This document shows positions 26,207 through 43,389 of a stretch of 64,000 nt of DNA, one piece after another (the first letter of the stretch is position 1; the number at the start of each line of letters is the position of its first letter). The DNA is from Escherichia phage LYE-01. The notes below the pieces were generated by a model. It saw nothing but the letters and a program-made list of their open reading frames with translations. It did no database searches and was not told the DNA's origin. The position numbers and the translations under genes are program-made. The stretch is taken from the sequence record PQ303785.1. The stretch is one strand, 5' to 3'.

Positions 26207-26833
26207 ATGTATGAATACAAATTTGACGTGAGAGTTGGTTCTAAAATAATCAACTGTCGCGCATTTACTCTTAAAGAATATCTAGAACTTATTACTGCTA
26301 AAAAGAACGGTTCAGTCGAAGAAATTGTTAAAAAGCTAATTAAAGACTGTACAAATGCAAAAGATTTAAACCGTCAAGAATCAGAACTCTTGTTGATTCA
26401 TTTATGGGCACATTCTCTTGGAGAAGTTAATCACGAAAACTCCTGGAAGTGCACCTGTGGAACTGAAATACCAACCCATATAAATCTATTACATACACAA
26501 ATAGATGCACCAGAAGACCTCTGGTATACACTGGGTGACATTAAAATTAAGTTCCATTACCCTAAAATTTTTGATGATAAAAATATAGCCCACATGATAG
26601 TATCATGCATAGAAACGATTCATGCTAACGGGGAAAGCATTCCAATTGAAGACTTGAATGAAAAAGAGTTGGAAGATTTATATTCTATCATCACAGAGTC
26701 AGATATTGTAGCTATAAAAGATATGCTTTTAAAGCCTACTGTTTATTTGGCTGTTCCAATTAAGTGTCCAGAGTGTGGAAAATCTCACGCTCATGTAATA
26801 AGAGGACTCAAAGAATTCTTTGAGCTATTGTAA
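26207..26833 (+). CDS. 26: Baseplate hub subunit, 208 aa
   Basis: Track ORF; length equals T4 gp26. Confidence 0.8.
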
Positions 26834-40154: not shown

Positions 40155-40646
40155 TTATTCCCAATAATCGAGAGCAAGAGTTACTTCAAAGGTTTGGATT
40201 TCATTGTTTGAATCCCAATCTAACTGAAGTTCACCCACGTTAGTAGGCCACAGGCCTTTAATTTCGACTTCTTTTGTTACAGTTTTAGCGTCACGAGCAT
40301 ATTGGCGTACAATAGCACTCTTTTTATACTCTGCTGGTTTTCCACCAGTAATTTCGTTTCCTTGCCCAGCAGCAATGCTTTGCCAGTCAACAAACTTCTG
40401 ACGTGCATCATGCGCCTCATCATTCATTACTGTAATAGTCCAGTCATCGAATGTACGATCGCCTGCTACGTTAATTTTACGGTTCATAAATCCGACTGGA
40501 ATTTTTTCTACAATACCAGCTGGTAAAGCAGTGGCTTTACACTGAAACGTAAAATTTTGTCCAAGATAAGAAATTTCTACTTGGAATAAGTTAGGTCGAG
40601 CAAAATCACCAGATTCAAACGCTCGTGTTACATCATCTACAAACAT
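40155..40646 (-). CDS. 19: Tail tube protein, 163 aa
   Basis: Track ORF; length equals T4 gp19. Confidence 0.9.
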   Translation of the reverse strand: MFVDDVTRAFESGDFARPNLFQVEISYLGQNFTFQCKATALPAGIVEKIPVGFMNRKINVAGDRTFDDWTITVMNDEAHDARQKFVDWQSIAAGQGNEITGGKPAEYKKSAIVRQYARDAKTVTKEVEIKGLWPTNVGELQLDWDSNNEIQTFEVTLALDYWE

Positions 40647-40660
40647 ATTAGCCTCTGTAG

Positions 40661-40727
40661 TATTTATATCCCTATGTTTAACCTAGGGCATATAGAATTA
40701 AAGAATTAAGGATATAGTGTATTTATA
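40661..40727 (-). promoter_or_regulatory. Two candidate late promoters (TATAAATA on minus strand at about 40661-40668 and 40720-40727) upstream of gene 19
   Basis: Two plus-strand TATTTATA octamers in the gene 19 leader region. Confidence 0.45.
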
Positions 40728-40753
40728 TGGCCTGCCGAAACAGGCCTTTAGAA

Positions 40754-41371
40754 TCATTCTAGCAAATCCCAAAGATCTACACTATTTCTTTTTGACTTTT
40801 CTCGGTTAGATTCCCAAGTGATTATTTCTAAATTATTAATACCGCCAATTATTTTAGCAGGAATTAAATTATCAAAACCGTATTTGATAGATACCTTATG
40901 ATCAAGTTGGTAAGCACCTTCTTTACCACACACTCCTATCTTATCAGCATTCGGCCATTTTGACCAAATTTTCTTATGCTTACGAGTTTCTCTATATACC
41001 GATGAAATATATTCACGCATTTCAGATTTATTTGGGTTCCATCTTGGATGATTTACGCCATGCATACATTCTACGGTTTTTCCTTTATTCGCTGAACCAT
41101 ATGAATTATTATGCATTTTATCTTTATGACGGCAATCACAACAAATATCAGTGTTTCTTCCAATGCGTTGATTATATTCAATTCCACATTTATCGCAACG
41201 ACATTTTACATACGCGGTACTACCTTTAATGTCTTCAACTTTAACATCAATTTCATAATACTTAAATCCGTGTTTAACCGCTCCAAGAGGTGTTAATTTA
41301 TATCCCTTTGACTGATAATGTTTAAAATTTGATGGTACAATTTTTACTTTAATGAATTTAGAAATAATCAC
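40754..41371 (-). CDS. HNH (His-Me finger) homing-endonuclease-like protein, 205 aa, GTG start
   Basis: HNH core QLDHKVSIKYGFDNLIPAKIIGGINNLEIITWESNREK; N-terminal Cys cluster CRCDKCG...ICCDCRH; no in-frame ATG near the 5' end, GTG start preceded by GAGGA at 5-nt spacing. Confidence 0.7.
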   Translation of the reverse strand: MIISKFIKVKIVPSNFKHYQSKGYKLTPLGAVKHGFKYYEIDVKVEDIKGSTAYVKCRCDKCGIEYNQRIGRNTDICCDCRHKDKMHNNSYGSANKGKTVECMHGVNHPRWNPNKSEMREYISSVYRETRKHKKIWSKWPNADKIGVCGKEGAYQLDHKVSIKYGFDNLIPAKIIGGINNLEIITWESNREKSKRNSVDLWDLLE

Positions 41372-41387
41372 TTGATTCCTCGAGAAC

Positions 41388-41403
41388 AGGGGCCGAAGCC
41401 CCT
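41388..41403 (-). terminator. Hairpin AGGGGC-UUCG-GCCCCU on the gene 18 transcript
   Basis: Inverted copy of the 11413 and 31832 hairpin, immediately after gene 18 stop. Confidence 0.55.
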
Positions 41404-41409
41404 TATCAA

Positions 41410-43389
41410 TTAACCTGCAAGACCAGTTAACTCATCGAAATCTGCACCAGTAGCAGTTGCGACGAAATTCAAAGTAATATAATTTATACTGCGCGCCGGT
41501 TGGATGTAGAATGTTGCAACAAACTCATTTCTATCAATTACTGACGGAGTGTTATTTGTTGTATCGCAAACTACACGATATTCATAAATTCCACCGAGAG
41601 CTTTAATTCCCTGTAAGTATTGGGCAGTTTCTGTGCGGAATGATGAACGAGTAAACGCGTTGTTTAATTCGAACAAACGATATTTTGAACTACGTCCGAT
41701 ATTCGTTTTCAACATATTAAACAGACGACGAACGTTAATACGATCAAATGGAGAAGGAACAGAAGTAGCTGTTTTATCACCATATAATACGTAACCATCA
41801 CCACCTGTACCAGTTACTGGGTTGATAGCTTCTTGATATAAACGGTCGCGCTGAGCTTGGCGAGTTTCAATAGCAAGTTTAATAACGTTAAGAATCTGGC
41901 CGCGATTATAACCAGCTGGAGACATCCAAGTCTGAGAAACGTTATCGGTTCTTGCACATAAACCGGCAATATCAGCTGCTAATGGAACCCAGCGATTGAC
42001 ATCATTATATTTGTCATACTGATATTTGTAGTTACCATCAATTGCTGCGTAGGTTGAACTGATATTAAAGTTATTATCAGTGTATGAACCTGTTGCGGTT
42101 CTCCAATTGACTAAGTTATCGACAGCACGAGTTACAGGAATTCCAACTACAGTTTCACGCGGTGGTGAGCACAATACTAAGCAATCCTGGCGAGCATCCC
42201 CAATTGAAACAACGTGTTTTTGGACAGTAGATGCTGTTTCCAAAGATTCACCGGCGCAAGAACCAGCAATAAACAGCTGAACGTCAACAGATTCACGGTC
42301 AGCAAAGAAGTCCCAGGCTTCCATTAAATCTCCTGCTGTTACTTCAGCATTTGATGATAATCCACCAGACAGAGTTAAAATTCCAGAGAATCCTTCTGGC
42401 CAGTTTTGTGCAGTTGCGAAAATATATTCTGAACCACCTTTTGCGAAAAAGTCATCAATGTAGATGTTACTATCGTAAATATCTTTTTCACCACGCTTTG
42501 TTGAAAGAACAATACTTTGAACAATAGCATCATTGCGACGAACTATAATAGCGTATTGTGAATCAGTTTGTGGTCCATATCCAAACACCGCTTTGGCAGT
42601 AGATGCACGTGTTCCGCCACCTGGATAAATTGGGAGTAATGCAGAAGCACCTTTTGCGTAGTCAGCTTTAGATACGATTTCAATTTCGATTTTATCGCCC
42701 AACTCGCCTGGGTAAAGAGCTACTACTCCTGGAATTCCATATTTTTCGAGATTTGCTTGAAAGTCAACAGCTGTCATAGCAGCTTCAGCATTTTCAATTT
42801 CAGCTAATAAAATACCAGAATCAGTAATAATTTTTCCAAGAGTTATTACTGCAGCTAAACCAGAGGAAGACGAAGAAATTTCCGCGGTCCAGTTAGAACC
42901 TAATGCTGGATATTCACCGACTTCTTTCGCTTTAGCGATAATTTTTGCGGTAGGAATATTAATTTTCTTAATTTTTCCATCAGCATCTACTTCGGTAATT
43001 TTACCTTCCGTTTCAATGTCTTCTGAAACATACTTAACTGTGATTTTATCTCCAACCGCGTAGTTACTACCTGGGGTAGAAATAGTGTATTCAATATTAC
43101 CAGCAATCGGAGATGAGTTTTTAGCGGTATCTCTATCGACAGCACGCACAACTCGCAAATCATTTCCATATTGTAAGAAATTCATTGCAGACATAAAATA
43201 GTCAGCAGTTTCAGCTGTAGGTTGACCAAAAGTATTAACTAAATCTACTTCATTTGTAACCTGTTTGATCTGAAAAGCAGGACCCCACTGGAATTTACCG
43301 GCCAAAGCTGCTGTACCAGTAGAGTTATTAACCACGGTGCTTTGAACCGTAGTTTCTTTGAGCTCAATGCCCGGAGATAATAAAGTCAT
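41410..43389 (-). CDS. 18: Contractile tail sheath protein, 659 aa
   Basis: Track ORF; length equals T4 gp18. Confidence 0.92.
   Translation of the reverse strand: MTLLSPGIELKETTVQSTVVNNSTGTAALAGKFQWGPAFQIKQVTNEVDLVNTFGQPTAETADYFMSAMNFLQYGNDLRVVRAVDRDTAKNSSPIAGNIEYTISTPGSNYAVGDKITVKYVSEDIETEGKITEVDADGKIKKINIPTAKIIAKAKEVGEYPALGSNWTAEISSSSSGLAAVITLGKIITDSGILLAEIENAEAAMTAVDFQANLEKYGIPGVVALYPGELGDKIEIEIVSKADYAKGASALLPIYPGGGTRASTAKAVFGYGPQTDSQYAIIVRRNDAIVQSIVLSTKRGEKDIYDSNIYIDDFFAKGGSEYIFATAQNWPEGFSGILTLSGGLSSNAEVTAGDLMEAWDFFADRESVDVQLFIAGSCAGESLETASTVQKHVVSIGDARQDCLVLCSPPRETVVGIPVTRAVDNLVNWRTATGSYTDNNFNISSTYAAIDGNYKYQYDKYNDVNRWVPLAADIAGLCARTDNVSQTWMSPAGYNRGQILNVIKLAIETRQAQRDRLYQEAINPVTGTGGDGYVLYGDKTATSVPSPFDRINVRRLFNMLKTNIGRSSKYRLFELNNAFTRSSFRTETAQYLQGIKALGGIYEYRVVCDTTNNTPSVIDRNEFVATFYIQPARSINYITLNFVATATGADFDELTGLAG

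Follow-up and report, generated by a model that had tools for sequence, protein, structure and literature searches.

Tail sheath and tail tube genes of Escherichia phage LYE-01 separated by a probable free-standing homing endonuclease gene from an uncharacterised HNH-superfamily family

In Escherichia phage LYE-01 an open reading frame (ORF) of 205 aa separates the tail sheath gene (gene 18) from the tail tube gene (gene 19), and it is probably a free-standing homing endonuclease gene belonging to an uncharacterised family of the HNH (beta-beta-alpha-metal) superfamily. The ORF was studied in a stretch of 64,000 nt of this T4-like (Tequatrovirus) genome (record PQ303785.1), hereafter called the window. 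It is the sole gene in the space between two conserved genes, and some close relatives of the phage have it and others are cleanly without it. T4 has fifteen homing endonucleases, and one more in a T-even phage is thus unsurprising; what is new is the family, which is unannotated, has a reversed domain architecture, is represented by no Pfam or NCBIfam model and is often missed or truncated in sequence records. Free-standing homing endonucleases shape marker survival in T-even co-infection and mark the boundaries of phage genetic exchange.

An insertion between genes 18 and 19

Gene 18 (659 aa, 1980 nt; 41410..43389; phrog_23, E 1.1e-142) and gene 19 (163 aa; 40155..40646; phrog_45, E 2e-63) were called as ORFs on the minus strand of the window, as are all the features of this region described below. 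Gene 18 is collinear with its counterparts in T4 and T6, and the 18-19 region has 99.4% identity with that of the Escherichia phages W143 and P922. In T4 and T2 the two genes are separated by 116 nt only, and by comparison with them the ORF is a precisely bounded insertion. When the junction is aligned with those of T4 and T2 and with five further empty sites, an insert of 656 nt (40754..41409) stands out, which begins straight after the TAA stop codon of gene 18 (41410-41412), its left boundary, and takes the place of the 9 nt TACGGTGCA. Everything downstream of the insert is T4 intergenic sequence, base for base: the hairpin GGCCTGTTTCGGCAGGCC (40729-40746), which lies directly 3' of the ORF stop and is T4's own post-gene-18 hairpin, the two late-promoter motifs TATAAATA for gene 19 (40720-40727 and 40661-40668), and the gene 19 ribosome-binding site (RBS).

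The insert itself is a compact cassette ordered as hairpin, RBS and GTG-started ORF. A GC hairpin with a UUCG loop, GGGGCTTCGGCCCC (41389-41402), recognised by sequence reading and folding, opens the cassette at its 5' end, after the gene 18 stop and ahead of the RBS, and equivalent hairpins precede the ORF in other genera, for example GGGCCTTCGGGCCC in Salmonella phage STP4-a. The Shine-Dalgarno sequence GAGGA (41377-41381) lies 5 nt upstream of the GTG start codon (41369-41371); part of it pairs within the extended stem of a predicted fold that lacks significance (z = -1.46). The ORF extends over 40754..41371, with its TGA stop codon included, and matches phrog_5104 over residues 1-204 (E 1.9e-90).

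The cassette has no promoter of its own. No late-promoter motif TATAAATA occurs within the insert, so that the ORF appears to be a promoter-less cassette dependent on read-through from gene 18. A sigma-70 promoter scan of the region stayed at chance level, the terminator-like sites listed lie on the opposite strand, and an Rfam scan of the 40-42 kb region of the window found no RNA family and no group I intron. The same promoter-less arrangement, with read-through from upstream, is described for seven free-standing endonuclease genes of T4 (PMC2988022).

The initial annotation, made from the sequence alone, had placed a 205-aa ORF between the sheath and tube genes, with a GTG start, a well-spaced GAGGA, hairpins on both sides, late promoters retained by gene 19 and a short 18-19 gap in T4. 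All of this is borne out by the alignments and profile matches. The interval that it gave, 40729-41409, spans the ORF and both flanks, whereas the gene itself occupies 40754..41371 on the minus strand.

A two-domain protein with a predicted H-N-N nuclease motif

The N-terminal domain (about aa 1-85; 41117..41371) contains a zinc knuckle with conserved cysteines, C59-x2-C62...C77-x-C79, in agreement with the N-terminal Cys cluster noticed at the outset. C59, C62 and C77 are invariant or nearly so, and the fourth position is held by Cys or His (C79/80), giving a putative zinc site of the CxxC...CxxC (Cys4) type. Profile searches of PDB sequences with 24- and 91-sequence profiles returned zinc-finger matches only, among them the zinc-finger region of mS66 (E 0.006), and no nuclease. 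DUF4379, a treble-clef zinc finger, matched weakly in 10 of 24 and in 23 of 91 relatives (best E 7e-6), and the window protein gave no such match. The domain is presumed to be a DNA-binding module, and it is the part that is swapped between the two Tequatrovirus alleles described below.

The predicted nuclease domain is C-terminal (about aa 140-195; 40787..40954) and has a strand-strand-helix arrangement. D157, H158, N180 and N189 are invariant in 34 sequences; across 91 diverse cluster representatives N180 remains invariant and the other three are conserved at >=90%. L181, W186 and K192 are likewise invariant or nearly so in alignments of relatives. In the AlphaFold (AF2) model of the protein (pLDDT 86.6) the strand 154-158 ends in D157-H158, N180 starts the strand 181-185, and the helix 186-192 holds N189 and K192. 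As modelled, the domain therefore has the H-N-N form of the beta-beta-alpha-Me motif, in which Asn takes the last position: a helix comes after a beta-hairpin, the general-base His ends the first strand, and His, Asn, Asn/His and Asp are conserved at the positions of the HNH motif.

This motif is recognised by none of the curated models. The window protein matched no Pfam family at E<=1 and gave only noise in NCBIfam, and no match above threshold to the Pfam profiles HNH, HNH_3, HNH_4 or HNH_5 was obtained. Among the relatives, sub-threshold matches were found to HNH_4 (1 of 24 and 8 of 91) and to HNH (5 of 91), with best E values of 1e-3 to 6e-3, and there were weak NUMOD3 matches in 2 of 91; HNH_3 was absent among the best 25 of the 33 and of the 133 Pfam families that the relatives matched. 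A Foldseek search against viral models returned proteins labelled 'HNH endonuclease' (1.8e-6) and 'Homing endonuclease' (2.4e-4), together with DUF7487 proteins. Fold and motif combined with the missing profile match suggest that the ORF belongs to the HNH superfamily and lies outside any curated HNH sequence family. The 'clear HNH core' of the initial annotation was thus right as to the residues, which are kept on alignment, but 'clear' overstated the case, as the Pfam search that it had advised returned nothing for the protein and only sub-threshold matches for its relatives.

The lack of a Pfam HNH match, the Asn in place of His at the last motif position and the situation of the ORF among late genes and beside hairpins would also fit a catalytically inactive zinc-finger protein that binds DNA or RNA, for example a regulator of late tail genes, in which the HNH-like motif is structural only. 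We regard such a protein as very unlikely. D157, H158 and N189, the residues expected to be catalytic or metal-binding, vary little or not at all in hundreds of clusters, the distribution of the ORF is sporadic, and I-HmuI, which has Asn at the last motif position, is reportedly an active endonuclease.

Some longer metagenomic relatives (P0131, P0134, P0158, P0180) have DUF7487, a domain of unknown function, upstream of the nuclease domain (E down to 2.6e-50), and DUF7487 is therefore a likely partner module of this nuclease family. A search of the window with the family HMM found no paralogue. An ORF of 208 aa in the baseplate-gene region (26207-26833) was considered as one and set aside, since it gave only a weak match (E 0.015), probably through its Cys motifs.

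Occurrence and annotation of the family

Members of the ORF family occupy the 18-19 junction in about 128 of about 530 Tequatrovirus-like records, that is, in about a quarter. Two alleles occur. The allele of the window, here called RB3-type, is present in 47 records, including RB3, RB5, RB6, RB7, RB9, RB10, HP3 and W143, and the T6-type allele, typified by T6 and PP01, in about 81; the T6 copy is 49-57% identical to the window ORF. The empty sites of T4, T2 and five metagenomic relatives (L013-L016 and L020) have identical 116-nt gaps and are clean, with no ORF remnants. The comparison of T-even junctions that the initial annotation had proposed thus separates T4 and T2, which lack the ORF, from T6 and the RB phages, which carry one or the other allele. 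Occupied and empty sites are also found side by side within other lineages, as in STP4-a versus L018 and L019, and in L022 versus L021 and L023.

Beyond these phages, tblastn detected relatives of the ORF in 244 phage records, and a profile search of 1.84 billion cluster representatives found 6812 at E<=1e-3, with 1404 passing E<=1e-10, which indicates a large family. The sheath gene is immediately followed by a relative in T6, Klebsiella phage Mexia, Acinetobacter phage MD-2021a and Salmonella phage STP4-a, and also in the Dhakavirus phages PSD9 and Bp7, Serratia phage CHI14, Sinorhizobium phage phiM7 and Vibrio phage VmeM-32. This position was seen in every one of these contexts, down to 33% identity. 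Compared with T4 and T2 the window does have an inserted ORF, as had been supposed, but this is no one-off event, the family being tied to this locus across many genera.

In Campylobacter phage CP21 the family is found within the sheath gene instead of after it. The gene (L031 1018-3985) is split exactly between the residues equivalent to gp18 515 and 517 by about 1.6 kb containing a 388-aa ORF, CP21_075, whose C-terminus is homologous to the nuclease domain of the window ORF. An Rfam scan of the CP21 locus detected neither an RNA family nor a group I intron. Further downstream come three more genes annotated as 'putative homing endonuclease'.

In some phages the next gap also holds nuclease-like ORFs. 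The gap between genes 19 and 20 is occupied in Acinetobacter phage MD-2021a by a NUMOD3-containing ORF (L006:4115-4723; E 1.8e-7), and in phage Bp7 by an ORF with a weak match to the GIY-YIG protein SegE (L009:3769-4350; E 0.0046); portal gene 20 of Bp7 is annotated as two pieces. The tail/portal block thus resembles a hot spot for insertions of nuclease-like ORFs. A 32-kb record labelled Staphylococcus phage SAJK-IND (MG010123.1; hits H48 and H200) contains a Tequatrovirus sheath-ORF junction at 95% identity, and this record, with its Staphylococcus aureus label, is probably mislabelled or contaminated.

An alternative view of the family's fixed place in such distant phages is that it marks an old resident gene of the T4-like tail module, not mobile, placed there by vertical descent and lost many times. 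This is quite unlikely in our view. Sites without the ORF are clean and share one sequence, with nothing left of a lost gene, and the CP21 relative is inside the sheath gene; in addition, as detailed in the next section, the divergence of the ORF is decoupled from that of its flanks.

The public record of the family says little about its function. The entries PHROG 5104, RB3_165 and T6ORF160 concern the same protein family as the window ORF and give no function: phrog_5104 is labelled 'unknown function', and the public names, including that of RB3_165, to which the window protein is 96% identical, and that of T6ORF160, are nearly all 'hypothetical protein'. One record, that of phage ADUt, uses 'homing endonuclease'. 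A literature search for an endonuclease between genes 18 and 19 found no description. Because of its GTG start, the ORF is omitted or annotated in truncated form in many GenBank records; the RB5-RB10 records omit it, and products beginning at an internal ATG are given for PP01 (185 aa), ECp13 (120 aa) and S16 (106 aa). The short ECp13 and S16 products, which might pass for decayed copies, arose because annotators missed the GTG start, and neither frame is broken.

Alleles out of step with their flanking genes

The window phage and T6 are 99% identical in gp19 and in the C-terminus of gp18 and only 57% identical in the ORF; the Dhakavirus phages PSD9 and Bp7 are 100% identical in gp19 and 40% in the ORF. 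The window ORF is nearer to the versions of Klebsiella (66%) and Salmonella (64%) phages than to that of T6. On these identities the history of the ORF is incongruent with that of its flanking genes, through lateral spread or replacement, which argues against a vertically inherited resident. Together with the T4 and T2 alignments and the presence of the ORF in only part of the Tequatrovirus records, this supports the self-contained mobile insertion that was initially suggested.

The RB3-type and T6-type alleles are mosaics. Their leader and first eight codons are about 90% identical, and the last ~220 nt, which encode the nuclease domain, about 93%; the central ~400 nt, which encode the N-terminal domain, are unalignable.

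The ORF is under purifying selection (dN/dS 0.06-0.14), and its reading frame was whole in all copies inspected. Such strong constraint, with no decayed copies found, would also suit a domesticated or accessory nuclease of benefit to the phage, the descendant of a homing endonuclease that no longer homes and that might serve to keep out competing phages, to attack satellites, or to amplify or defend genes nearby. Published nucleases resembling homing endonucleases have such roles (PMC10448857; PMC13096335 for SegB). Domestication nevertheless seems unlikely here, since three quarters of the close relatives do without the ORF, different alleles replace each other at one site, and the layout of the cassette is that of a minimal selfish element. 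The exclusion of competitors is, moreover, a usual by-product of homing, and to this extent a domesticated nuclease overlaps with the homing endonuclease that we favour.

A synonymous patch in gene 18 and the candidate target

Near its 3' end, gene 18 of the window differs from that of T4 by 11 synonymous changes within 34 nt (41461..41494), with the encoded peptide ARSINYITLNFV unchanged, and this patch is bordered by stretches without differences from T4. Across the phage database it is bimodal, 250 records having the T4-type patch and 280 the variant, with no intermediates. The ORF family is present in about 124 of the 280 variant-patch records and in 4 of the 250 T4-type records, these being raw record counts that ignore shared ancestry. 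A role of the patch as the immunity determinant of ORF-bearing genomes was considered and rejected, as it is contradicted by T2, which has an empty site and the window's patch, and by sb1, sb2, sb3 and Ec_YwIITB1, which have a whole ORF and the T4-type patch. Judged from these counts, the patch is linked to ORF occupancy and is not required for it.

Other genera bear window-like codons at the patch, for which reason the T4-type patch looks like the derived state. It may be a cleavage-resistant allele of the target, which would account for the near-absence of the ORF from T4-type genomes; alternatively, it may be a mere lineage marker, tightly linked to the locus. The patch as candidate target segregates uncleanly, as T2 and sb3 show, and this speaks against the homing interpretation.

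Within the window-type patch, some 75 nt before the gene 18 stop, the sequence TATAAATT (41479-41490) has a 7/8 match to the late-promoter motif TATAAATA; the T4-type patch (AGCATTAACTAC) contains nothing comparable.

Of the DNA close to the insertion, only the 3' end of gene 18, which encodes ...PARSINYITLNFVATATGADFDEL..., is conserved in every genus that bears the family, and it is therefore the most plausible candidate target of the ORF endonuclease. Other free-standing phage endonucleases cut the adjacent conserved gene (PMC2988022).

A proposed homing cycle and its significance

If the ORF is a homing endonuclease gene, its late transcription would come from the gene 18 late promoter by read-through, and its translation from the GTG codon would be weak. 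The N-terminal zinc-finger domain of the protein would then bind a long site, either the conserved 3' end of gene 18 or the empty 18-19 junction, or both, in the genome of a co-infecting phage without the insert, and the C-terminal HNH domain would nick or cut the site so bound. Recombinational repair off the ORF-bearing genome would copy the ORF and adjacent markers into the recipient.

A wider reading, which we advance tentatively and as a whole would sooner doubt than accept, makes the ORF the founding example of an undescribed homing endonuclease family, with an N-terminal treble-clef zinc finger, a C-terminal H-N-N nuclease, thousands of metagenomic relatives and a specialisation on the tail sheath gene throughout the T4 superfamily. 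Rival alleles that differ by a swap of the DNA-binding domain would compete for one site, and the 11-change patch of T4 would be a cleavage-resistant target allele.

The family is tied to the end of the sheath gene from coliphages to rhizobiophages and Campylobacter phages, and is thus linked to an essential structural gene, whereas most T4 examples are found at genes of nucleotide metabolism. The RB3-type and T6-type alleles, with their swapped and presumably DNA-binding N-terminal domains, and the bimodal patch in gene 18 make up a compact natural system that is suited to testing the co-evolution of endonuclease specificity and target resistance. On the practical side, the annotation of many Tequatrovirus genomes that are therapeutic candidates is affected, and the ORF may bias the outcomes of phage cocktails and crosses near the tail genes.

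Relation to known phage endonucleases

Hef is a free-standing endonuclease of T4-related phages that was once described as outside all known families, and Campylobacter phages have Hef-like genes as well as relatives of the window ORF. Vsr-like enzymes have the catalytic signature E-D-x-H-D. Hef is now counted among them, in the Hef / I-Bth0305I family (PMC3239194). A relationship of the window ORF with Hef was considered and rejected, as no Vsr-like domain and no relation in fold was found.

The intron-encoded I-TevIII, from the nrdB intron of RB3, and I-HmuI resemble the window ORF in combining a phage HNH motif with zinc fingers or modular DNA-binding elements, although no significant sequence similarity of the ORF to either was detected. 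I-TevIII has its H-N-H motif in the first 50 residues, followed by two C-terminal zinc fingers of the CX2C...HX3C type, and acts as a dimer (PMC1865063). Its domain order is thus opposite to that of the window ORF.

The T4 Mob proteins (MobA-MobE) are HNH homing endonucleases that are likewise free-standing and encoded in gaps between conserved T-even genes. Mob genes are often promoter-less cassettes that use upstream promoters, as proposed for the window ORF, and mobA likewise starts at GTG (GUG in the transcript) (PMC2988022). In Mob proteins the HNH motif is N-terminal and the DNA-binding region C-terminal (PMC2988022), whereas the window ORF has the reverse order, residues 59-80 forming the zinc knuckle and residues 154-192 the nuclease motif. 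The loci differ too: the ORF, single in the window, lies between genes 18 and 19, and the Mob genes lie in the nrd, topoisomerase and alpha-gt regions.

A parallel in mechanism is the intronless homing of SegF, SegG and MobE, where the endonuclease gene adjoins an essential gene that is conserved, and mixed infections lead to co-conversion of markers close by; the adjacent nrdB is named as the gene that MobE cleaves (PMC2988022). The Seg enzymes are GIY-YIG proteins and the window ORF is HNH-like, but the mechanism is the one proposed here, with gene 18 as the likely candidate for the cleaved neighbour.
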